Translations under genes and position numbers: made by a program | Source of the DNA: a virus | Taxonomy: Duplodnaviria; Caudoviricetes | Reading direction: 5' to 3' (one strand) | Length of the DNA: 64,000 bases | Virus record (IMG/VR): IMGVR_UViG_3300006201_000013 | Location: 6,905-70,904 of that record | Part shown: positions 1 through 40,545 of the stretch, piece after piece | Position numbering within the stretch: position 1 is the first letter of the stretch | How the letters are laid out: every line of letters starts with the position of its first letter | Notes under the pieces: generated by a model | What the model saw: only the letters and a program-made list of their open reading frames with translations | Told to the model about the DNA's origin: nothing | Database searches by the model: none

Positions 1-481
1 CACTCGTTTGGAGGACGCCGTAGACGTTCTTGTTAATGGAGATTGCAATAGCAAGGCCGCCGAGGTAGCATCTCTAAACGGGCGTATCTTCGGATACAAT
101 ACGCTGCTGGATTTTTGGGCCCAGTTCGACCCATACGAAATGAACATCGCCCTTGCATCCAACGATATAGCCCTCGATTTGTTGAAGATGCCTGAGTTTC
201 AAAACTCGTCTGCTGGATTCAGCTTTCAGCAACCGCATTGTGTCACCATGCCATTTGGGCCTATGCTGATTCGTTCTAACGCTGTGCCACAAAACACAGT
301 GATTGGAATCGACAAGCGCTTTGCTCTTGAGATGGGGCAAGTTGGAGATGTAACAACGGAATACGATAAGCTCATCAACCGTCAATTTGAGAGAACTGCC
401 ATCACTATTATCAGTGGATTCTCAAAAATCTATGATGAAGCAAGTCGAGTTTTAAGCACCTCATTGCAAAAGAAACGGTAA
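1..481 (+). CDS. Major capsid-like protein, C-terminal part (5' truncated by the window edge)
   Basis: Frame is open from base 2 (TRLEDAVDVLVNGD...). LLDFWAQFDPYEMN, LLKMPEFQN and GIDKRFALEM..GDV..EYDKLINRQFERTAIT.ISGFSKI resemble the C-terminus of a clostridial phage capsid family as I recall it. Confidence 0.55.
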   Translation, partial: TRLEDAVDVLVNGDCNSKAAEVASLNGRIFGYNTLLDFWAQFDPYEMNIALASNDIALDLLKMPEFQNSSAGFSFQQPHCVTMPFGPMLIRSNAVPQNTVIGIDKRFALEMGQVGDVTTEYDKLINRQFERTAITIISGFSKIYDEASRVLSTSLQKKR

Positions 482-647
482 CTCAGGTTGTAATGCGGAA
501 TATGGGATTGAAAGCGTCCATCATCTAAGGAGTGGGACGAAGCAGCATGGCTGTGGATAATGGGAAGGCACCCCGTAACTGGTAAGACTGCCCTCCCTTT
601 GGCGTAAAAACACACCATATCATTTATAAATCATACTGGAGGTACAT

Positions 648-998
648 ATGAAAAAGAAGTTTACTGCTGTGGCACTTTTTATCGTTCTGCTTATGGGACT
701 GGCGGCTTGTGCGTCCAAAGGCACAAAGGGGTACGAGTCAAACACGGGGCTGGTAGCTATCCCTGGTTTCAACGACTTGTACTACGATAGCCAGACCAAG
801 GTTGTGTATTTCGTGTTCAATGAGTGCTCTGGGTATCAGGGGTATGGGTATATGTCTGCCTACTACGCCCCGAATGGGCTCCCATATCTCTACGACCCAT
901 TCAATCAGGAATTGGCTGAAATTAGTTATGCACCGACCGAGCAGACCGAGAATCTCCAACCAAATTTTCTTTCAAGGGGAACGAATAGCGGATTATGA
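648..998 (+). CDS. Lipoprotein, unknown function
   Basis: GGAGG RBS; MKKK + hydrophobic stretch + lipobox LAAC. Confidence 0.75.
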   Translation: MKKKFTAVALFIVLLMGLAACASKGTKGYESNTGLVAIPGFNDLYYDSQTKVVYFVFNECSGYQGYGYMSAYYAPNGLPYLYDPFNQELAEISYAPTEQTENLQPNFLSRGTNSGL

Positions 999-1013
999 AG
1001 CTACGCTTTGGTG

Positions 1014-1193
1014 ATGAAAATGCAATATAAGTTCGGTGATGTTCTGATATACACCTCGCCGCAAGACTCCACTCGCAAAACTCCGTGTGTGTTCATACGG
1101 GATGAGAAAGGTCGAGCAGTCGTATGTTTTCGGCGTGCGGAGTGGGCGGCAAGAGTAAACTACCAGTTTCTGTCGAAACAGGAAGCAATATAA
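1014..1193 (+). CDS. Small hypothetical protein
   Basis: Short ORF in the same orientation as its neighbours; no recognised motif. Confidence 0.45.
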   Translation: MKMQYKFGDVLIYTSPQDSTRKTPCVFIRDEKGRAVVCFRRAEWAARVNYQFLSKQEAI

Positions 1194-1196
1194 TAA

Positions 1197-1358
1197 GTTA
1201 TGCGGTGGCGGAATAGGTAGACGCTAATGTCAGATAGGATGGCCTATCGGTTCGATTCCGACGGCTCTTAACCACGGTGAAATAGCCGACAGAGCAGGGG
1301 CTGATTTGGTACAAGGGAGTGGACATCCATGTAGGGTGCAAATCCTTGCCCGTATAAC
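1197..1358 (+). ncRNA. tRNA-like RNA with a 90-nt insertion replacing the anticodon loop
   Basis: Acceptor-like stem GTTATGCGG (1197-1205) / CCGTATAAC (1350-1358); Leu-type D arm TG-GCGGAATAGGTAGACGC; stem ATGTC (1227-1231) / GACAT (1322-1326); T-like arm GTAGGG-TGCAAAT-CCTTGC; no encoded CCA. Confidence 0.7.
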
Positions 1359-1376
1359 GATTCAAGGAGGCAGGCC

Positions 1377-1751
1377 ATGTTCCGTGTAATCATCGCTGGC
1401 GGTCGAGACTTCAAGGACTACGACCTGCTTGTTAAAACCATGAACCATCTTCTGTCCAATATCAAGGACGACATCACGGTAGTCTGCGGCAAAGCACGAG
1501 GAGCCGATACGCTTGGAGAGCAGTATGCCAAGGAGCAGGGTTATGCCGTGCAGTATTTTCCTGCAGATTGGGACAGGTATGGCAAGGCCGCTGGATACCT
1601 TCGCAATACGGAGATGGCCAAAAACGCTGATGCCTTAGTCGCATTTTGGGATGGAATGAGTTTGGGGACGCGGCACATGATTGAGACCGCAAAGGCACAC
1701 GGTCTAAAAGTTCGAGTGAAACGATACGATAAAGAAAGCGGGGTGCGTTGA
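1377..1751 (+). CDS. SLOG-superfamily (DUF2493/YspA-like) protein
   Basis: VIIAGGRDF, GKARGADTLGEQYA, FPADWDRYGKAAGYLRN, VAFWDG..GT.HMI. Confidence 0.85.
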   Translation: MFRVIIAGGRDFKDYDLLVKTMNHLLSNIKDDITVVCGKARGADTLGEQYAKEQGYAVQYFPADWDRYGKAAGYLRNTEMAKNADALVAFWDGMSLGTRHMIETAKAHGLKVRVKRYDKESGVR

Positions 1752-1754
1752 TAA

Positions 1755-2567
1755 ATGGAAGGGAAATTCGTCGTTTATGATTCTCAGGGGGAACTGAACC
1801 TGCGGCAAATCGCAGACTCTGGTCAGTGTTTCCGACTGAAAGAGTATGATGCAGACAAGTTTATTGCGGTCACGGGTTCTCACGCCGTTGACATCCACCG
1901 TCGTGGCGACGTTTACATCTTCTGGTGCGATACCAATGAGTTCCAGGAAGTTTGGACTCCATACTTTGACCTGGATACAGACTACAGAACGTTTAAGGCT
2001 CAGATGCAGGACGACCCGTTCCTGCAGGAAGCACTCAATAGCGGCGGCGGAATCCGTATCCTCCGGCAAGACCTGTGGGAAACGGCGGTTACATTCACCA
2101 TCTCCCAGCGCAATAATATCCCACGCATTGCCAAGTCGGTCGAGACATTATGCAGTAATTTCGGGACTTCACTGAAGGAAATCGGCGGACAACAGGTCTA
2201 CGCCTTCCCAACCCCCGACCAGCTTCTCTGGCCGGATTTGTCAGCCGCTGCACTTGGATATCGAGAGCCATACATCAAAGAGCTGTGTCGGAAAGGTGAC
2301 GACGTGTGGCAAAGTCTCCCCAACCTAAGCGATGCTCAAGCCAAGAAAACACTGATTGCCATGAAGGGTATCGGTGAGAAAGTGGCCAACTGCATTATGC
2401 TCTTTGGGCTCCATCGGATGGACAGCTATCCTCGGGACGTGTGGGTCAACCGCCTGATTGATGACGTGTATCATGGAGACTTCGACCCTGGCAAATACGC
2501 CGGGTTCGCCGGGTATGTCCAGCAGTTACAGTTCTACCACTATCGGAATAAGACGTTCAGCTTTTAG
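1755..2567 (+). CDS. ogg: 8-oxoguanine DNA glycosylase (Ogg, HhH-GPD family)
   Basis: LRQIADSGQCFR, ILRQDLWE..VTFTISQRNNIPRI, HhH motif GIGEKVANC with Lys, and PRDVW with the catalytic Asp. Confidence 0.88.
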   Translation: MEGKFVVYDSQGELNLRQIADSGQCFRLKEYDADKFIAVTGSHAVDIHRRGDVYIFWCDTNEFQEVWTPYFDLDTDYRTFKAQMQDDPFLQEALNSGGGIRILRQDLWETAVTFTISQRNNIPRIAKSVETLCSNFGTSLKEIGGQQVYAFPTPDQLLWPDLSAAALGYREPYIKELCRKGDDVWQSLPNLSDAQAKKTLIAMKGIGEKVANCIMLFGLHRMDSYPRDVWVNRLIDDVYHGDFDPGKYAGFAGYVQQLQFYHYRNKTFSF

Positions 2568-2577
2568 AAGCAGATTG

Positions 2578-2605
2578 AAGCCGCCGCAAGGCGGCTTTTT
2601 TATTT
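2578..2605 (+). terminator. Intrinsic terminator
   Basis: AAGCCGCC-GCAA-GGCGGCTT followed by a T run, just after the glycosylase stop. Confidence 0.85.
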
Positions 2606-2628
2606 TAATATTCGCCGGAGGTGAGGTC

Positions 2629-3603
2629 ATGATACAAATTCTGGAACTGTTCGGAGGCGTTGGCTCTCCACGCTGTGCCCTCCGTAATCTTGGCATTCCG
2701 ACAAAGGCAATCGACTATGTGGAGATTGATGAGAAGGCGGTCAGGACTTATAACAGTATGTTCCGTGAGGAGCTTCCATACAAGACTCAAAGCGTTGTTG
2801 GGTGGAACCTCAGACCCGATATCCTTATTCATGGAAGCCCGTGCCAGGATATGAGTATTTCGGGCCATCAGGGAAAGGCAACTGCCGTCAACGGACGAGT
2901 AAATCGCGGGCGTGGCGCAGACGAGGGAAGCGGAACTCGCTCCAGCCTAATGTGGGAAACCATCCACATCATCCAGCAAATGGGAGACTGGAAGCCGAAA
3001 TATGTCATCTGGGAGAATGTCAAGAATGTACTCACCAGATACAACCGCCACAACTTCGACCGATACATATCTGAACTTGAAAGGCTTGGGTATACGAGCA
3101 ACTATGCAGTTCTCGATGCAAGGGACTTCGGTCTGCCACAGGCCAGAGAGCGTGTGTTCACCATCTCCACTTTGAACGAGGGGGTGTTTGACTTCGATAG
3201 CCTAATTCACACCCCGATGCAAGATATCCGGTCGTTCCTGCTGGATAACGCTGAGGTTCCAAGCGTTTACGATGTAACCCAGCCAAGCGTTCTGAGTGTG
3301 ATTGGCGAAACGGGTATTAGGCGAGCGACAATCATTCGAGACTATGCTTTTACTGTGACAACCAGACAAGACAGAACACCGGCTCAGGTGGTGGACTGCG
3401 GAAATGGTCGTTACCGATATCTGACTGAGCTTGAATGCTGGCGTCTGCAAGGATATACCGACGAAGATTATCGAAGGGCCGAGCAGGCTCAGAAACGGGT
3501 CGGTCGTTACTATACAGCCTTGTATAAACAGGCTGGAAATTCTATTGCAGTTCCAATTTTCGAGAGCATCTTTCGCAAGATGCTACTCGGGGAAACAGCC
3601 TAA
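2629..3603 (+). CDS. DNA (cytosine-5) methyltransferase, orphan
   Basis: LELFGGVG (motif I), HGSPCQD (IV), WENVKNV (VI), QARERVF (VIII), GNSIAV (X); GGAGGTGAGG RBS before ATG 2629. Confidence 0.92.
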   Translation: MIQILELFGGVGSPRCALRNLGIPTKAIDYVEIDEKAVRTYNSMFREELPYKTQSVVGWNLRPDILIHGSPCQDMSISGHQGKATAVNGRVNRGRGADEGSGTRSSLMWETIHIIQQMGDWKPKYVIWENVKNVLTRYNRHNFDRYISELERLGYTSNYAVLDARDFGLPQARERVFTISTLNEGVFDFDSLIHTPMQDIRSFLLDNAEVPSVYDVTQPSVLSVIGETGIRRATIIRDYAFTVTTRQDRTPAQVVDCGNGRYRYLTELECWRLQGYTDEDYRRAEQAQKRVGRYYTALYKQAGNSIAVPIFESIFRKMLLGETA

Positions 3604-3610
3604 GCACAAC

Positions 3611-3863
3611 TCAGACCAGCCAGCCGCTTTGTAAATTTGTTGCAGTACATACCTCGTTTCCCTGCAACAGCTTTTCGCCCAAGGCAAAAGTAAGAATTTG
3701 GAGCTACGTTCCCATCGCCCAGCAGTCCGCTTCGCGGACGAGACTTTTCTCACTCGCATTGCCAAGCAATGCTCGTGAGTGCTGGGCTCGGGAACGACGC
3801 AATGCACATCGAGCGGCCCACTCACAATCGCCGCCCCGATGCGGAAAGCGGCTGGCTGTTTGA
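3611..3863. ncRNA. Highly structured intergenic element (candidate ncRNA or ssDNA structure)
   Basis: Perfect 14-bp closing inverted repeat 3617-3630 / 3845-3858 enclosing several nested perfect stems (3638-3645/3662-3669; 3707-3713/3790-3796; 3717-3724/3780-3787; 3725-3739; 3756-3772). Confidence 0.65.
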
Positions 3864-3884
3864 AATAAAATCGGAGGTGCCCAT

Positions 3885-4376
3885 ATGATTGATGTTGGAG
3901 CAAAGAGTGTGTGTTTCGCCTGCGACGAGTGCGGTATTCACGAGCAGATTGAACGCAGAATGCAGGTCGCCCGTGAGCTCGGGGAAAATCTCCAATACGA
4001 CCATTGTAGTTGCGACAAAGTCGGAGATGAGTTTTGGGCCGGAGGGTACTGCGAGGACGCTTTTGCTGAGAAACCCTCCAAAAGAAATGAAGTCAGGCGC
4101 AAAACGGGCCGTGCGTACAGGCGCAAAATGCGCCGCAAGACCATCAAAAAGTATCGCATCCGGGATGGTCAGGGGTGGTCGTTTGGGCCACACATCAACG
4201 GGCATTGGGAGGGCGATGAATATGTCCTTGGCAATTACGTTGAATATCCCAGAAGCTCAAAAAACAAGGTGTTCTTCAAGCGTGTGTCGAACAAGGCAGT
4301 CCGCCGGAGTGAAAGCCTCCCGCTCAAGGGGAACGGATACCGTAAGGTGTTCGACTACTGGTGGACGATTACTTAG
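3885..4376 (+). CDS. Hypothetical protein, Cys-rich N-terminus and Arg/Lys-rich C-terminus
   Basis: GGAGGT RBS; CFACDEC and HCSC..C motifs; strongly basic second half. Confidence 0.7.
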   Translation: MIDVGAKSVCFACDECGIHEQIERRMQVARELGENLQYDHCSCDKVGDEFWAGGYCEDAFAEKPSKRNEVRRKTGRAYRRKMRRKTIKKYRIRDGQGWSFGPHINGHWEGDEYVLGNYVEYPRSSKNKVFFKRVSNKAVRRSESLPLKGNGYRKVFDYWWTIT

Positions 4377-4388
4377 GGAGGCGATTCA

Positions 4389-4619
4389 TTGACTTCGTAC
4401 TACGTTACAACCACATCATCCACCGTCAATGATTGGTGGCACCGCTCTCCATACCTCTCACACTCATACTACCAGCCATTCAATGTCTGTACGCCAACAA
4501 AAGAGCGGACGGTTTGCATCCCAAAAGAGGAGATGCAGCAGATGAGTAACGAAGAGTTTGACGCTGCGTTCAAAGACCTGCTTTTTGGTGGCAGCAAACA
4601 GGAGGGAGAAAATGCCTAA
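4389..4619 (+). CDS. Small hypothetical protein
   Basis: GGAGG RBS before a TTG start; overlaps the next start codon. Confidence 0.5.
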   Translation: MTSYYVTTTSSTVNDWWHRSPYLSHSYYQPFNVCTPTKERTVCIPKEEMQQMSNEEFDAAFKDLLFGGSKQEGENA

Positions 4620-5196
4620 TTTCTACATCTCAGACTGGCACTACAACCACAAGAATTGCTTGGCATTTGACAACAGGCCGTTCACATCTATTGAGCAAAT
4701 GAACGAAGCGCTCGTAGAGCGCTGGAACAACGTGGTCAAGCCGGGCGACACAGTGTATGTGCTTGGCGATATGTTCTGGTGTGACTCAGAGATGGCAATC
4801 TCTGTGCTGGATTCTCTGTCTGGTAGGATTTTCCTGATTAAGGGGAACCACGACCGTTGTCACACTAAAAAGTTCACTGACAAGTTCGTAAAAGTCGCAG
4901 AATACATGGAGATTAAAGATAACGGACGCAATGTAGTGCTAAGTCACTATCCTATCCCATGTTTCAAAAATCATTTTTACGGATGGTATCATCTGTATGG
5001 TCATGTCCACAACTCATTCGAGTTCAACATGATGGAGCACGATAAATTTCTCATGCAGGAATTGTACTCCCGCCCATGCAATATGTTTAACGTTGGTGCC
5101 ATGATGCCATGGATGGACTACACACCACGGACGCTCGAACAGGTCGAATTGCTGTCCAATGGGTGGAAAATTGAATCTGTTGGAAAAAACGAGTAG
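4612..5196 (+). CDS. Calcineurin-like metallophosphoesterase
   Basis: ISDWH, LGDMF, KGNHD, LSHYP, LYGHVH motifs. Confidence 0.9.
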   Translation: MPNFYISDWHYNHKNCLAFDNRPFTSIEQMNEALVERWNNVVKPGDTVYVLGDMFWCDSEMAISVLDSLSGRIFLIKGNHDRCHTKKFTDKFVKVAEYMEIKDNGRNVVLSHYPIPCFKNHFYGWYHLYGHVHNSFEFNMMEHDKFLMQELYSRPCNMFNVGAMMPWMDYTPRTLEQVELLSNGWKIESVGKNE

Positions 5197-5249
5197 GTAT
5201 AAACCCCTGTCCGACAGCGGTTTCTCCTGTGCTTGATGGGGTGTTCTTA

Positions 5250-5258
5250 TGCTACAAT
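5250..5258 (+). promoter_or_regulatory. Extended -10 promoter candidate upstream of the desulfurase operon
   Basis: TGcTACAAT about 25 nt before the GGAGGG RBS region and ATG 5284; no clear -35. Confidence 0.45.
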
Positions 5259-5283
5259 TTATAAAGCTGCAAGGAGGGCGTCA

Positions 5284-6444
5284 ATGATTTATCTTGATGC
5301 AGCGGCTACGACCCCGATTGACCCAAGGGTCTTGGAATCTATGATGCCGTACCTGACGACCCAATACGGAAACGCCGGTACGCTCTACAGATTCGGACGG
5401 GCGGCCAACGAAGCGATTCAAGAATCGAGAGCACGGGTGGCCCGGTTTATCGGCGCAGACCCAAACAGCATCATTTTCACATCCGGCGGCAGCGAGGCCA
5501 ACAACCTTGTGTTCCACGGCGTAAGAGACTATCTCAAGCGCATTGGGCGCACACATATCCTCGTTTCTGCCGTGGAGCACGACAGTGTTCTCAGAGCCGC
5601 AGAGAGCCTTATGAAAGACGGATTTGATGTCGAGTATATTCCCGTACTCGGCAACGGAACCGTGCCTTCTGCGGCTGTTGAGCGGGCTTTACGGGCAGAT
5701 ACCGGGCTGGTGTCCGTCATGTATGTCAACAATGAAACCGGCGTAGAGAATCCGGTGGGCGATATTGGGAGCATCTGCTTGAAGCACGGCGTTCTGTTCC
5801 ATACGGACTGTGTACAGGCCGCCGGGTGCCACCCCATCGACACCACCAGTATCGGCTGTGATTTCCTGTCCATCTCGGCCCACAAAATCCATGGCCCCAA
5901 GGGCACGGGCGCTCTCTATGCCAAGGATTCCTCCATCCTATCTCCTCTCATCTATGGCGGACACGACCAGGAGTTTGGGCTACGGGGCGGAACGGAAAAC
6001 GTGGCCGGTATCGTTGGGTTTGGACGGGCGTGCGAGATTGCCAGCGCCCAGCAGAATGAGGACAGAACGACCGTCTCCATGCTCAAGCAACGGTTCGTGA
6101 CAGAGCTTCAGAGCCATCTCGGTGGCGATACCGTACATATCAACGGGACATCCCTTCTGGCTCCAGGGAAAACGGTCAATCTCCGAATTGACGGTGTTGA
6201 TAACGAGACCCTTATCCTGATGCTGGACAATGCGGATGTCTGCATTGCCGCCGGGTCTGCCTGTCAGAGCCACGAGTCCAAACCGAGCCATGTGCTCACG
6301 GCAATGGGGCTTACTACAGAAGAAGCAAGGAGTTCCATCCGTGTCTCGTTCTCCAGAATGAACACGGTGGATGAGGTTATGGACGCAGCCCACACTCTGG
6401 CATCTTTTGCCGATGTGCTGCGCTCACACAGAACGGAGGAATAG
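5284..6444 (+). CDS. iscS: Cysteine desulfurase, group I (IscS/NifS type)
   Basis: YLDAAATTP, FTSGGSEANN, HTDCVQA, SAHKIHGPKG (PLP Lys), GGTENVAG, AGSAC (catalytic Cys). Confidence 0.93.
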   Translation: MIYLDAAATTPIDPRVLESMMPYLTTQYGNAGTLYRFGRAANEAIQESRARVARFIGADPNSIIFTSGGSEANNLVFHGVRDYLKRIGRTHILVSAVEHDSVLRAAESLMKDGFDVEYIPVLGNGTVPSAAVERALRADTGLVSVMYVNNETGVENPVGDIGSICLKHGVLFHTDCVQAAGCHPIDTTSIGCDFLSISAHKIHGPKGTGALYAKDSSILSPLIYGGHDQEFGLRGGTENVAGIVGFGRACEIASAQQNEDRTTVSMLKQRFVTELQSHLGGDTVHINGTSLLAPGKTVNLRIDGVDNETLILMLDNADVCIAAGSACQSHESKPSHVLTAMGLTTEEARSSIRVSFSRMNTVDEVMDAAHTLASFADVLRSHRTEE

Positions 6445-6447
6445 GCT

Positions 6448-7470
6448 ATGACAATCGAGCAAATCAAAGAAATGGTGGCGGGTTCCGAGTACGATTTCCT
6501 CAGAACCAACCCACATCTGAAAGACAGAATCATCTTCCTGACGCTGGGCGGCAGCTACTCATACGGCACAAATGTGGAGACATCAGACGTGGATGTTCGT
6601 GGCTGTGCCTTAAACACTCCCTCTGATTTGCTCGGCCTTACCAATTTCGAGCAGGTCGTTCATACGCAGACCGACACCACGGTCTATTCCTTCAACAAGC
6701 TCATCAAGCTCCTGCTCAACTGCAATCCCAACACCATCGAAATGCTGGGGTGCAAACCGGAACACTACTTCCTGCTCACTGATACCGGCAGGATGATGAT
6801 TGAGAATCGGAAGCTGTTTATGTCCAAGCGTGCAGTCCACTCCTTCGGTGGGTATGCCACGCAGCAGCTCCGGCGGTTGGAGAACGCCCTTGCCAGAGAC
6901 AAAATGCCGCAGAGTCGGTGGGAGGAGCATATCCGTAACTCCATGGAGCGTGCAGTGCAGTCCTTCAAAAGTCGCTACACCAAGTTCGACAAGGGCAGCT
7001 TTATTCTCTACACTGACGATAGCCCACGAGAGGATTTAGACCGTGAGATTTTCGCCGACATTACCTTGAAGAAATTCCCGGCCAGGGAGTTCAACAGCAT
7101 GATTAACGACCTGACCAACGTGCTCAGCGACTATGAAAAGTTGAACCACAGGAACAATAAAAAGGACGACAACCACCTCAACAAGCACGCCATGCACCTC
7201 ATCCGGCTGTACCTGATGTGCCTGGACATCCTGGAGAAGGGCGACATCGTTACCTACAGGGGCAACGACCTCGACCTGCTCATGAGTATCCGGCATGGGG
7301 AGTACCAGAAAGAGGACGGGACGTACCGGCAGGAGTTCTTCGATATGGTTAGCGAGTTCGAGGCTCGACTGGCCTATGCCAAGGAGAACACGGCTCTACC
7401 GGAGAATCCCGACATGAAGCGTGTCGAGGAGTTCATCATAGAAGTGAACAGGAGGTCTTTGGATGGGTAG
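6448..7470 (+). CDS. DNA polymerase beta-superfamily nucleotidyltransferase (RlaP / T4 NrdC.11-like)
   Basis: GGSYSYGTN..TSDVDVRG (GS..DxD), LL.CNPNTIEML, FGGYA..QL, KHAMHLIRL. Confidence 0.82.
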   Translation: MTIEQIKEMVAGSEYDFLRTNPHLKDRIIFLTLGGSYSYGTNVETSDVDVRGCALNTPSDLLGLTNFEQVVHTQTDTTVYSFNKLIKLLLNCNPNTIEMLGCKPEHYFLLTDTGRMMIENRKLFMSKRAVHSFGGYATQQLRRLENALARDKMPQSRWEEHIRNSMERAVQSFKSRYTKFDKGSFILYTDDSPREDLDREIFADITLKKFPAREFNSMINDLTNVLSDYEKLNHRNNKKDDNHLNKHAMHLIRLYLMCLDILEKGDIVTYRGNDLDLLMSIRHGEYQKEDGTYRQEFFDMVSEFEARLAYAKENTALPENPDMKRVEEFIIEVNRRSLDG

Positions 7471-8827
7471 AATTCATATCCCTCGTGGCGCAAGCGATGT
7501 TATGACCGTACTGGCGCTGGATGGATTCGACTCATATGTGGTAGGCGGGTGCGTCCGAGACAGCCTGCTCGGCCTGGAGCCGCATGATTGGGACATCTGC
7601 ACCAACGCAACACCCGTGGAGGTTCTGGAAACTTTTGCGAGACGCAATATTAAGACTATCGAGACCGGTATTAAGCATGGCACAGTTACGGTCTGTCTGG
7701 GCGACGCCGGAGAACAGTACGAGGTCACGACGTTCCGTATTGACGGTGAGTATTCTGACAGCCGCCACCCGGACAGTGTGAGTTTCACACCAAGTCTTCG
7801 AGAGGATTTGGCGAGACGTGACTTCACCATGAACGCCATGGCCTACAACGAAGTCGATGGCCTGATTGACCCGTTCGGTGGTGAGAAATCCTTGCGGGAC
7901 AATGAAATTTCTTGTGTAGGCAATCCGGCGGACAGGTTCCAAGAGGATGCTCTGCGGGTTATGCGGGCTCTCAGGTTTGCTTCTACCTACGGATTCTCTA
8001 TCCAGGAGGGCACGGCCAAGGCGATTCGCCAATTTGCACCACGCCTGAGCAACATCGCCGCAGAACGTGTCCAGTCGGAATTGAACAAACTCCTCCTGGG
8101 TGGCGGTGTGCTCCAAGTTTTGCTGGACTACAGCGATGTCATGGCGGTCATCATCCCAGAGCTTGCTCCATGTATCGGATTCGACCAAAAGAACCGCTAT
8201 CATGAGTACACGATTTACGACCATATCGTTCATGCTGTCGCTAACTACACCGGGGACGACCTTTCAGTGAAGGTGGCGCTCCTGCTTCATGACATTGGGA
8301 AGCCTCAGTGTTACACCGAAGATGAACGGGGTGGGCACTTCCATGGCCATGGTGTTCCAAGCCATGACCTGGCCGACATCGTGACTAAGCGGCTGCGGTA
8401 TGACAATAAGACCAGGGACGAAGTGCTCACACTGGTTCTGTATCATGACTCCGTTATCGAGCCGACCTACAATGTGGTTCGCCGGTGGTTGAACAAGATT
8501 GGAGAAACGAACTTCCGCAAACTCCTCCAGGTTCGGATGGCCAATATCAAAGCTCACGCAAAGGATACTCAGGCGTCCCGAATCGAGCGGTGTTTGGCGC
8601 TCCACGATATTCTGGACGAAGTCATAGCGCAGGAGCAGTGTTTTTCCATGAAGGATTTGGCTATCCGAGGCAAAGATGTGATGTCGTTCGGCGTGCCGGA
8701 AGGTAAGCTGGTCGGAGATACGTTGCGGCACATCCTCGATACGGTTATCAACGGGGAAATCCCGAACGAAATCGAGCCTCAAATACAGGCCGTCCAGCAG
8801 TATTTGGCGGTGCGTGCTCATGAGTAG
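7463..8827 (+). CDS. cca: Class II CCA/tRNA nucleotidyltransferase with HD domain
   Basis: VGGCVRD, DWDICT, EVTTFR, EDLARRDFTMNAMA, EDALRVMRALRF, ERVQSEL, LLHDIGKP. Confidence 0.92.
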   Translation: MGRIHIPRGASDVMTVLALDGFDSYVVGGCVRDSLLGLEPHDWDICTNATPVEVLETFARRNIKTIETGIKHGTVTVCLGDAGEQYEVTTFRIDGEYSDSRHPDSVSFTPSLREDLARRDFTMNAMAYNEVDGLIDPFGGEKSLRDNEISCVGNPADRFQEDALRVMRALRFASTYGFSIQEGTAKAIRQFAPRLSNIAAERVQSELNKLLLGGGVLQVLLDYSDVMAVIIPELAPCIGFDQKNRYHEYTIYDHIVHAVANYTGDDLSVKVALLLHDIGKPQCYTEDERGGHFHGHGVPSHDLADIVTKRLRYDNKTRDEVLTLVLYHDSVIEPTYNVVRRWLNKIGETNFRKLLQVRMANIKAHAKDTQASRIERCLALHDILDEVIAQEQCFSMKDLAIRGKDVMSFGVPEGKLVGDTLRHILDTVINGEIPNEIEPQIQAVQQYLAVRAHE

Positions 8828-16957: not shown

Positions 16958-18289
16958 ATGAGAGCGAGCGAAGACATCGCGAGAGTGGACTGCGAGGCCG
17001 GTATCATCGCCACGCTGTTCTATCACCCAGACTACTCCTTCTACTCCGAAGACCTGCTCCCAAACCACTTCACAAACATTGAGAATAGGTATATCTACCA
17101 AGCGATTTGTAGCTTAGCACGGAAGGATATCACGCAAATCGACCCTTACATCATCATTCAGGAGCTGGAGACCAACGAGGCGACCCGTCATCTGGCCGGT
17201 GAGATTACGCCGGAGCAGCTCTACACCATCGTGGACAACACGGATGCGCTGGTTCGCAACACGGTTGAGGGGTATCAGCTCTTGACAAAGGCCGTAAAAG
17301 ACGCAGCCTTTCGGCGTGATACTTTCCAGCAGTTGAGAGAGTGCCAGCAGTTGTGCCTCCAGAAGTCCAGCGACAACATTGAGCAGCGCATCTACCAGCT
17401 TCTGGATGATGTGATGATGGAGTTTTCAGCAGCCAACGATGTTCCACCGTATGCGGAGGTTGTAGATAAGTGCTGGGAGGAGATTGAAAACCGGCAGGGC
17501 AGCGGATACGCCGGTATTCCCTTCAAGTTCCCGGCTCTGAACGACTACGCCACCATTGAACGGGGAGAGCTGTTTATCTTCGGGGCGGAGCAGAAGCAGG
17601 GTAAGAGCATGATGCTCCTCAACTGTGCGGTTGACCTGCTCAAGCAGGATTACGCCGTTTTGTACCTGGACAGTGAGCTGAACACACGGCTTTTCACAGC
17701 CAGAATCCTCGCCCACCTGTCCGGTATTGAGTATAAGCGGCTGACATCCGGCAATTACACCGAGGATGAGAAGAACCGTATCATGCAGGCTAAGGAGTGG
17801 CTGAAAACCCGCAAGTTCACCCACATCTACATTCCAACTTTTGACCAGCAGAGCATCTACACCGCCGTTAAGAAGGTGAAACACACTCAGGGGCTTGACG
17901 TTCTGATTGTGGACTACTTCAAGGGCAAAGGCGAAGGCGACGCATTCGACAGCTATCAAGAGCTTGGGCGTTTCGTCGATATGGTGAAGAACCAGATTTG
18001 TGGCGAGATGAACATCGCAGGAATTGGGGCCGCACAGGCAACGGTGACAGGTAAACTTGCCGACAGCGCCAAAATTGCCCGCAACGCCTCCACGATTGCG
18101 ATGATAACCGACAAGACCCCGGAGGAAATCGAAGCCGACGGGGCGGAATGTGGCAACAAGAAGCTCCGAGTCACTGTAAACCGCAACGGAATGCAGATGA
18201 CACAGGATGAATACATAGACCTGCTCTTTGACGGCAACCACATCCGTTATGAGCAGGCTAAGCAGCACATCCCCCAGACCCCTTATTGA
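16958..18289 (+). CDS. dnaB: Replicative DnaB-family helicase
   Basis: EAGIIATL, Walker A GAEQKQGKS, YLDSEL, LIVDYFK, NRNG. Confidence 0.9.
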   Translation: MRASEDIARVDCEAGIIATLFYHPDYSFYSEDLLPNHFTNIENRYIYQAICSLARKDITQIDPYIIIQELETNEATRHLAGEITPEQLYTIVDNTDALVRNTVEGYQLLTKAVKDAAFRRDTFQQLRECQQLCLQKSSDNIEQRIYQLLDDVMMEFSAANDVPPYAEVVDKCWEEIENRQGSGYAGIPFKFPALNDYATIERGELFIFGAEQKQGKSMMLLNCAVDLLKQDYAVLYLDSELNTRLFTARILAHLSGIEYKRLTSGNYTEDEKNRIMQAKEWLKTRKFTHIYIPTFDQQSIYTAVKKVKHTQGLDVLIVDYFKGKGEGDAFDSYQELGRFVDMVKNQICGEMNIAGIGAAQATVTGKLADSAKIARNASTIAMITDKTPEEIEADGAECGNKKLRVTVNRNGMQMTQDEYIDLLFDGNHIRYEQAKQHIPQTPY

Positions 18290-39016: not shown

Positions 39017-40166
39017 GGGTTTCTCCTCTCATTCTGAAATTCTCGATGCGCTCCGGCGAGAAGCCGAAGATGGCATAGAAAAGCCGCCGAAGTTTCAGAA
39101 CCCGGCGGTGGTCGTTGTAGCCTCCGAAGTAGGCCAATATTCCATTAACGGAAGTCCAGAGGTCTTCGTAGGTCATCTCGCCTCTTTCAATCTTACCGTA
39201 AAACGCTTTGATTTTCCTACGGGCCCGCTTGATTCCGTCACGGTTGCCGCACATGACAACCTTGCCAGTCTCGGTCAAAGTGAACTTAGCCTTGCAGTAT
39301 TTGAAGGGCTTGGTCAACGGAATAATCTTTGACTTTGCAACGCTCACCGTCAGCTTCAAGCTGGTCGCTTTGGCAACGACAAGCGCCATCACTTCTTTCG
39401 GGTCTTGCCCCGGAGGCACGATGATGTAATAGTCGTCCATGTAATGTCCGGCGCACTCCATACCAAGCTGACATTTGATGTAGTTGTCCAATGCAGATGG
39501 GAAGGCTATCATTTCAGCCTGGCTCGGCTCAACGCCAAGCGGCAGACCTTTGTCTCCCGGCACAGTCTTAATCACATCGTCGCCTATCTTCTTGATATCG
39601 GGATGTAGCAGTAGTTGCTCATGCCGTTTGAACAATTCCTCATGCGACACAGACGGGAAGAACTGCTTGAAGTCAATCAAGATGATATAGCCCTCACGGC
39701 CATAATGGCGGAAATGCCAACGCAAATCTTCTTTGAGTACCCGCTTGGAAAACTCAAATCCCTTTCCGGGTAGGCTGGCTCCATTGTTGTAAATCATACT
39801 CGGGCGGTATAATGGGAGCAAAACCTTTTGGGTGAAGACCTTATGGATTTGGCGGTCTTGGATTCTCGGTGCGTCGATGGGGCGTATTTTGCCTCGCTCA
39901 TGTAGTGTGAAATGAACATAGGGTGCTGGCTCCCATCTGTATTCCATCAAAAGCCTTCTTCTCTTAGCCGTCCCAGAAAACAGATGAAGCTCAAATCTCT
40001 GTGCGCTGTTCTTCCAGCGCACACCGTTACAGCATTGCTTCCCGGCCCGGTACATATCATTAAATCCAAACACATCTTGGATTCCGCCGACTTCAATGCT
40101 GCGCCGGATTCTCTGTTCAATTCTCTTGGCTACCCTCCTTTGGTAGCGTCCTTTTCGTCTTGACAT
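38997..40166 (-). CDS. DGR reverse transcriptase
   Basis: GKIRPI, DRQIHK, IDFKQFFPSV, GLPLGVEPSQ, YMDD; no intron maturase or endonuclease domain; adjacent to TR and avd. Confidence 0.95.
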   Translation of the reverse strand: MSRRKGRYQRRVAKRIEQRIRRSIEVGGIQDVFGFNDMYRAGKQCCNGVRWKNSAQRFELHLFSGTAKRRRLLMEYRWEPAPYVHFTLHERGKIRPIDAPRIQDRQIHKVFTQKVLLPLYRPSMIYNNGASLPGKGFEFSKRVLKEDLRWHFRHYGREGYIILIDFKQFFPSVSHEELFKRHEQLLLHPDIKKIGDDVIKTVPGDKGLPLGVEPSQAEMIAFPSALDNYIKCQLGMECAGHYMDDYYIIVPPGQDPKEVMALVVAKATSLKLTVSVAKSKIIPLTKPFKYCKAKFTLTETGKVVMCGNRDGIKRARRKIKAFYGKIERGEMTYEDLWTSVNGILAYFGGYNDHRRVLKLRRLFYAIFGFSPERIENFRMRGETHEVHRA

Positions 40167-40419
40167 AATAGTGTTGTTCGCCCTCCGTACAGATGTCTTG
40201 TAGGGTGCCGTCTAATCTGCTTGACCACTACACATGAAACGGGGTAAGGCACGTTGCCCGCCATGCACGCTACTGTTGTCCAGTGCGGCGTTCGTGCAGA
40301 GGTATCAGAGGGACAGTTTTGGACTTTCGTCACGGGAAGTGTTTCTCCTTTCGTAAAGGTCGTGTTTCACCCTACTTTGGGCTACTGTCTGTTGACCCAT
40401 AAGCCATTGCTGGCCTTAC

Positions 40420-40545
40420 GAAATCCGGGGCGAGCCCATTGGAATTACTCGCATTGTTGTTGTTCGCGTTGCCGTTCGTGTTCACATTGCAGAAGTTGTT
40501 GTTGTTGTTGTAATTAGGAGAACGCTCCCACCAAATCGCAGTGGA
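40420..40545 (-). repeat. DGR template repeat (TR)
   Basis: 126-nt ungapped match to 41301-41426; AAC-codon rich; all 19 differences are at TR adenines (coding strand). Confidence 0.97.

Follow-up and report, generated by a model that had tools for sequence, protein, structure and literature searches.

The window (the whole stretch of 64,000 nucleotides analysed here, part of a 70.9-kb IMG/VR phage record) harbors an intergenic element of ~255 nt at 3611-3864, located between a gene for a C5 DNA methyltransferase and a gene of 163 amino acids. The element folds into five helices arranged round one junction and is paired almost end to end. Its parts, together with the downstream neighbor, are listed below; all are on the plus strand, and 'type 4' designates the class of RNA to which the element is assigned further on.

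3611-3630, plus strand: 5' strand of the closing helix P1 (a1-like), with an inner CTTT kept family-wide and a variable outer part
3631, plus strand: unpaired G directly 3' of the P1 5' strand, present in 31 of 31 type-4 sequences; candidate priming (branching) guanosine
3632-3637, plus strand: conserved linker J1/2, (U/A)A(N)AU(U/A), defined by alignment
3638-3669, plus strand: P2 hairpin, with an 8-bp stem (3638-3645/3662-3669) and a 16-nt loop, defined by fold and alignment
3670-3691, plus strand: P3 signature hairpin, GCUUnnCGCC-MAA-GGCnnAAGU, with a bulged C and a basal G.U, defined by fold and alignment
3692-3706, plus strand: A/U-rich linker J3/4, starting with a conserved AAGAAU, defined by alignment; candidate termination region
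3707-3796, plus strand: P4, a long variable arm with sub-hairpins at 3725-3739 (TTC loop) and 3749-3779 (CAA loop); candidate payload or template
3805-3843, plus strand: P5 hairpin with a conserved base, CACAU/AUGCG, defined by fold and alignment
3844, plus strand: invariant lone G between P5 and the P1 3' strand, at the end of the AUGYRG junction; candidate first templated base
3845-3863, plus strand: 3' strand of P1 (a2-like), defined by fold and alignment
3885-4376, plus strand: gene of 163 amino acids, outside the element, with a ribosome-binding site (GGAGG) at 3875-3879

A sequence-only reading of this DNA had described a 14-bp terminal helix, extendable to about 19 bp with one bulge and a G-T pair, that encloses several inner helices. 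The inner helices it named (P2, P3, the long arm with its two hairpins, and P5) are all in the sequence, and the terminal helix is as described: P1 forms a perfect 14 bp at 3617-3630/3845-3858, with an alternative in the minimum-energy fold in which C3617 is bulged and one G.U pair is included, giving 19 bp with a span of 3611/3863. The heptamer GCGAAGC, to which the same reading had drawn attention, is present on the minus strand of the element.

This fold is not a product of chance. As plus-strand RNA, 3611-3864 has a minimum free energy of -117.1 kcal/mol, as compared with -77.3 +/- 5.1 kcal/mol for 200 dinucleotide shuffles (z -7.85), none of which folded as well, and the outcome of this comparison with shuffled sequence, which had been proposed along with the fold, bears the fold out. 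The minus strand of the same stretch yields a z of -7.62 in the dinucleotide-shuffle comparison; as both strands fold about equally well, the energy rules out chance and leaves the strand undecided. The Rfam search proposed at the same time returned no family match: in Rfam 15 the best hit of the element is Ms_IGR-8, which scores 17.8 bits on the opposite strand (E 0.59; gathering score, 44), and the element is an RNA family absent from Rfam.

Three other accounts of the stretch were considered and rejected. An antisense open reading frame (ORF) at 3583-3903 of the window might suggest coding sequence, but clades B and D of the homologues described below contain stops in all six frames. The sequence TAnnTTTG in J1/2, a candidate for a Bacteroidota -7 promoter box, is lost in clade C, and tblastn gave no match that would identify the element as the decayed remnant of a 175-amino-acid gene that fills the site in relatives. 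A scan for promoters and terminators before and after the element found nothing, and the element probably lies within a long rightward transcript, from which it is cut or inside which it folds. Contigs from RNA libraries (four mouse-gut metatranscriptome studies) cross the element, one of them unbroken from 2931 to 4802; these contigs are not counted as evidence of transcription, since they say nothing about strand, ends or level and may stem from carried-over DNA.

The portion of the record upstream of the window (record positions 1-6904) encodes a Macro-domain protein (834-1289), an RtcB ligase (3183-4406) and a PAPS-reductase-like protein (5444-6424), so that the RNA-repair neighborhood reaches beyond the window. 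Within the window, 1197-1358 (L336 8101-8262) has no Rfam match at the gathering threshold, and ARAGORN calls no tRNA or tmRNA in record positions 1-8500.

Homologues, covariation and strand

Motif scans in conjunction with a covariance model (248 positions, built from 31 distinct sequences) identified 31 distinct homologues, which form six clades (A-F). The match of this model to the window covers 3611-3864, thereby confirming the boundaries of the element independently of its fold, and at the 5' boundary homology to relatives with another upstream gene begins abruptly at ~3609, close to the start of the fold. The close relatives L002 and L003 are 95% identical across the element and carry a different upstream gene. 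A divergent copy, located between tyrosine integrase and serine recombinase genes in L008-L011, has the same five-helix shape, with z values of -6.8 and -7.7. Wide 3'-motif scans of metagenome and genome contigs listed at least 240 further matches, nearly all due to chance, with L021 real among them; the candidate homologue L015 proved to be a chance match within an HNH gene. Elsewhere in the window, 17052-17118 on the minus strand gives a weak match to the covariance model (13.3 bits, E ~0.003-0.02), which is probably noise.

The gene 5' of the element is the C5 DNA methyltransferase gene in the window, a 241-amino-acid ORF in L002 and a gene for a CxxCxxCC protein in L257, and the breakpoint of homology lies exactly at the 5' edge of the element (window 3604-3610, L002 ~10455, L257 ~9716). 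This position suggests that the breakpoint is a recombination junction of phage mosaicism. On the 3' side, clades D and E have a gene for an HNH/AP2 protein that separates the RNA from the serine recombinase gene and is missing in clades A and B; an example is the HNH/AP2 homing-endonuclease-like gene at 4866-5414 of L338 (G012), just 3' of its distal type-4 RNA.

The proposed check of whether homologues conserve the structure was answered clearly by the alignment. RNAalifold assigns 46 consensus pairs to the 31 homologues, and compensatory double changes are found in 24 of them. Paired cells amount to 96.1% in the 31-sequence alignment, vs. 35-49% with the partners slid by 1-3 columns, while double-change cells number 112 vs. 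7-25 in these slid controls; the observed covariation score was reached by none of 500 column shuffles. Double changes affect 15 of the 22 consensus pairs in P4 and two of the five in P2, which also has several G.U variants, and they extend to motifs that scarcely vary otherwise: CTTT/AAAG in P1 becomes CCTT/AAGG in L268, a compensatory change within an otherwise invariant motif, and in seven clade E sequences a C-G pair at the base of P5 (alignment columns 216/255) is replaced by U-A (TGCACAT...ATGCGG to TGCATAT...ATACGG). Wobble pairs are strongly asymmetric, with G.U in 44 cells of 12 columns and A.C in six cells of four columns, indicating that the folded molecule is plus-sense, as are all surrounding genes. 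Among the interpretations offered by the sequence-only reading, that of an undescribed phage ncRNA is the one that agrees with the lack of an Rfam match, the strong covariation and the plus-strand wobble bias.

Conservation is unevenly distributed along the molecule. Mean identity between clades is 0.80 for the inner part of P1 together with J1/2, 0.85 for P3 (the loop of which reads CAA in the window copy, and the basal G.U of which is kept in 29 of 31 sequences) and 0.81 for the 3' junction, as against ~0.5 for P2, P4 and P5 (type 4), a pattern that corresponds to a conserved platform with a variable payload. In clade A, P1 has 14-20 bp, compared with 8-9 bp in C, D and E, and the first sub-hairpin of P4 is missing in L323. 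The recurring 3-nt loops that had been singled out in the window are real there and are not a constant of the family, as the P3 loop has 5 nt in clade C and that of P4a varies between 3 and 4 nt and is sometimes flipped. Between relatives, loops have been exchanged for their reverse complement (window 3763-3765 vs. L002; P4a in L287 vs. L305; CAA/TTG and TTC/GAA), and such swaps at perfect palindromes are, as read from these alignments, the signature of small inversions. In L002, a change of TC to GA makes P4b a perfect 14-bp stem.

Paralogous RNAs around a retron-like reverse transcriptase

Weak profile matches in a clade C contig (L016) led to three more P3 hairpins, which flank a reverse transcriptase (RT) of 378 amino acids.

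L016 (IMGVR_UViG_3300045988_104993), 442-1578: RT with a YADD active site; three RNAs lie around it, within 61-2179

The three RNAs of L016 are 260-340 nt long, with type 1 upstream of the RT and types 2 and 3 downstream. This layout recurs in about 30 other contigs, and the RNA triplet flanking the RT keeps a fixed spacing of ~1525 and 283 nt. The RT matches the PADLOC RT_II-A model over its full length (E 5.6e-46); against the NCBIfam model retron_St85_RT it scores 175.6 bits, below the cut-off of 235, and against the Drt2 model 42 bits. Judged by these models, it is a retron-like enzyme that is closest to the St85 family and is not a curated member of it. No effector gene was recognised beside the RT, the neighbors being ThiF-like, DUF6273-like and metallophosphoesterase genes.

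The same P3 hairpin is found in all three RT-flanking RNA types, and a scan of IMG/VR with the 23-nt P3 motif returned 73 stretches in ~45 phage contigs of 50-130 kb. Four RNA types, including that of the element, share a common frame consisting of a closing helix, G-nAUA, P2, P3, a variable middle part, AUGYRG and the other strand of the closing helix; within this frame P1 covaries between clades, types 1-3 also have a G at the position equivalent to 3631, and a GUAACAA-like sequence follows P3 in all four types. Like the element, the RT-flanking paralogs have no match in Rfam 15. The payloads of types 1-3 (e.g., L016 133-408) are strongly A+C-rich on the RNA strand, with 14-18% T, and in several clades fold no better than shuffled sequence; the type-4 payload is highly structured.

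Of 40 P3-bearing records, 32 encode the RT, among them all eight with a CheckV completeness of at least 90%. In seven of these eight complete genomes, the covariance model detects a pair of type-4 copies that lie on the strand of the RT and downstream of it: a proximal copy at a distance of ~4 kb, beyond a tRNA array, and a high-scoring distal copy at 15.2-21.6 kb. In the eighth (G027), the RT and a proximal copy are present, with a P3-level match only farther downstream. Downstream of the distal copy, L272 and L312 have genes for a metallophosphoesterase, IscS, RlaP and a CCA-enzyme, which are 66-77% identical to the corresponding cassette in the window; serine recombinase and Thg1 genes are common to the contexts of clades B and D. 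By this gene order, the element corresponds in position to the distal type-4 copy and, by its shared frame, is the distal type-4 member of a set of about five paralogous RNAs in gut phages of ~120 kb. Taken as a whole, 3611-3864 is very probably a real plus-strand RNA gene, conserved and belonging to a phage family associated with the RT.

The 70.9-kb record itself contains no retron-type RT, its sole RT being that of a diversity-generating retroelement (DGR). Only 10.5 kb of the record, which is 58% complete and occurs at 100% of words in mouse-gut sequencing runs, precede the element. The RtcB gene of the record (3183-4406) shares 79% identity with one located 6.1 kb downstream of the RT in L016, and from this synteny and the contig start the RT module would be expected ~3 kb beyond the start of the contig. 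In two other long RT-less records (G035 and G002), the distal copy likewise lies 3-9 kb from the contig end on the RT side; with contig ends so close to the element on that side, the absence of an RT here is uninformative and does not count as evidence for an orphan RNA.

A candidate template RNA and competing explanations

Retrons are bacterial defence units that comprise one RT, one adjacent RNA and an effector. The retron ncRNA usually lies within ~500 bp of the RT gene, and its priming guanosine, at the end of a1, forms a 2'-5' branch. The parts of the element suggest a comparable role, that of a retron-like primer and template RNA used in trans, a reading that we consider about evenly balanced between right and wrong. 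The RT would bind the conserved 5' module, P2/P3, and P1 would set the invariant G3631 opposite the first template base, G3844, with priming at G3631. From ~3844 back to ~3700, the RT would then copy P5 and P4, as retrons do with msd, to give a minus-sense hairpin DNA of ~140-145 nt made up of the complements of P5 and P4; in the phage to which the window belongs, the RT would act in trans on a remote RNA. This trans arrangement rests on synteny with relatives, given that the 58%-complete record has no retron-type RT.

By published criteria, a retron ncRNA contains several hairpins, an a1/a2 pairing of >8 bp and, close to its start, a priming G; copying mostly begins at a G and stops ahead of A/U-rich sequence (PMC10849725). 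With P1, G3631, G3844 and the A/U-rich segment 3692-3706, the geometry of the element matches this definition of a retron template (PMC10849725). Folded as DNA, the predicted cDNA has a free energy of -44.3 kcal/mol (z -5.5). The complement of the payload folds better than the payload itself in 79 of 79 paralog copies, which is a hint of a minus-sense product; shuffles attribute this advantage mainly to base composition (the plus strand having more C than G and more A than T), and z is equal on both strands.

The loops offer a second hint of a DNA product. C-GNA-G is a stable DNA triloop, and on the complement the P4a loop reads GAA, GTA or GCA in most clades (TTC, TAC or TGC on the plus strand), while the conserved A.C juxtaposition at the base of P5 (columns 215/256) becomes G.T on the complement. 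These GNA triloops and the G.T pair slightly favor DNA; independent changes are scarce, and some loops depart from the pattern (GAA, TTT and 4-nt loops). The suggestion in the sequence-only reading that the structure works as single-stranded DNA would survive in altered form only: an origin or a protein decoy formed from genomic DNA is not what the data point to, and a hairpin cDNA copied from the RNA by a retron-like RT is possible, as the paralogs flank one.

Several observations argue against a template function. At 15-22 kb, the RT of relatives is well outside the ~500 bp usual for retrons; P5 and part of P4 vary less than a free payload could; and the RT scores below the retron cut-off, with no recognised effector and no retron RT in the record.

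The alternative that survives best is a stand-alone structured RNA that functions without reverse transcription, for example as a scaffold, sponge or regulator for the neighboring tRNA- or RNA-repair enzymes; it would then have its ancestry and a protein-binding hairpin (P3) in common with the RT-flanking RNAs but serve a different purpose. It is encouraged by the 15-22 kb that separate RNA and RT in complete relatives and the lack of a retron-type RT in this record, by a location that is always in the RNA-repair region (before metallophosphoesterase-IscS-RlaP-CCA, near Thg1 and RtcB), by a type-4 payload more structured (z -5 to -8) than those of several RT-flanking types (z +1 to -2), and by the fairly conserved sequence of P5 and hairpin P4b. 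However, the element keeps all junction features of the RT-flanking RNAs (the G after P1, P3 and AUGYRG), which is hard to explain if the RT platform is unused, and every relative of at least 90% completeness that has the family also has the RT. We regard this explanation as unlikely, though still worth weighing against that of a template.

A cis-acting 5' leader that governs translation or transcription of the downstream gene is improbable. The element ends 11 nt before the ribosome-binding site of the 163-amino-acid gene, and no promoter or terminator of its own was found in the scan, as would suit a leader; in clade B, the P1 3' strand overlaps the ribosome-binding site and the ATG of the serine recombinase gene, and in the L016 type 3 paralog this strand contains the ATG of the next gene, which encodes the metallophosphoesterase. 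In the window, by contrast, the ribosome-binding site lies outside the fold, and the genes 3' of the element are unrelated between clades (the 163-amino-acid protein, a serine recombinase, a 52-amino-acid ORF and an HNH/AP2 protein), with no conserved downstream partner protein found across clades. The 163-amino-acid gene has >130 homologues, most of which are not immediately preceded by the element; the one in L272 is itself located 5' of the element, at a distance of 4 kb. As downstream genes are unrelated and most of these homologues occur without it, the element is not the leader of a particular gene.

Least probable is an element that acts at the DNA level (a MITE or other palindromic insertion, a recombination hotspot or an ssDNA origin). 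In its favor, P1 resembles terminal inverted repeats, close relatives carry different upstream genes with a breakpoint exactly at the 5' edge, the flipping of loops to their complement is a DNA-level event, and some relatives share the flanking genes without the element (L262 vs. L257). Against it, the element is single-copy in the 70.9-kb record (BLAST, motif and covariance-model searches), has neither target-site duplications at its edges nor a linked transposase, holds a syntenic position across clades, and has conserved unpaired junction nucleotides, strand-asymmetric wobble and compensatory changes in its internal helices, so that the MITE-like insertion once proposed for it can be set aside.

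Relation to known reverse transcriptase systems

The likeness of the element to retron msr-msd RNAs lies in its closing repeat (P1, 8-20 bp), in the G right after the 5' strand and the G beside the 3' strand, in conserved 5' hairpins followed by a variable 3' hairpin region, and in paralogs that adjoin a retron-like RT. In contrast to retrons, the element is located 15-22 kb from the RT in relatives (paralog types 1-3 do lie close to it), and the system is phage-borne, with about five RNAs for one RT and no recognised effector. We therefore do not class the element as a retron member, given its distance from the RT, an RT score below the curated cut-off and an msDNA that is a prediction.

The UG27 RTs of gut phages and prophages provide a second comparison, in which ncRNA arrays are copied into short hairpin cDNAs (bioRxiv 10.64898/2026.09.22.753630). 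The UG27 units, some of them in neighboring intergenic regions, are 135-167 nt long and form single interrupted hairpins with an AUCN7UANAG...UUYA motif, and they are associated with a YSDD RT plus sORF and bORF partners (bioRxiv 10.64898/2026.09.22.753630). Both systems combine a phage RT with several RNA units that are conserved in structure and diverse in sequence, cDNA templating having been demonstrated for UG27. In the family described here, however, the units are multi-branched, 250-340 nt in length and marked by the P3 hairpin and the AUGYRG junction, the RT has a YADD active site and retron types as its best models, and element and RT are separated by 15-22 kb. The motif AUCN7UANAG/UUYA has eight matches in the window, none of them within 3611-3864.

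The DRT2 ncRNA is a rolling-circle template for the Neo gene. It resembles the element in being a structured RNA of ~250 nt, the template ends of which are joined by a terminal helix, and in its compact RT; unlike it, the element has no stop-free frame conserved in any of the six frames, and the Drt2 score of the RT is 42 bits. A catalogue of viral retron-like RTs exists that does not cover the RNAs belonging to them (PMC13681634).

A phage RT with several template RNAs is already known from UG27 (bioRxiv 10.64898/2026.09.22.753630); new here is a retron-like phage RT tied to about five paralogous RNAs, one of them remote and beside tRNA-repair genes. Should the RT indeed copy the remote RNA, retron-type enzymes could use several RNAs, including distant ones, and phages would be seen to turn the products of such RTs to their own ends. 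A more specific proposal, which we advance tentatively and think rather doubtful, is that one phage RT serves about five dispersed template RNAs, each giving rise to a different hairpin DNA, with the hairpin of the distal copy, which heads the tRNA-repair cassette, acting in counter-defence against host immunity that targets tRNA or RNA. In any case, the element defines a clean RNA family missing from Rfam, for which the predicted priming G, first template base and cDNA extent are open to experiment.

The window also contains a DGR on the minus strand at 39297-40545, the RT gene of which (~39297-39896) is the only RVT_1 gene of the record. The associated Rfam RT-2 RNA at 40160-40400 (128 bits) is the only gathering-level Rfam match in the window, and an AAC-rich repeat lies just upstream of it on the minus strand.
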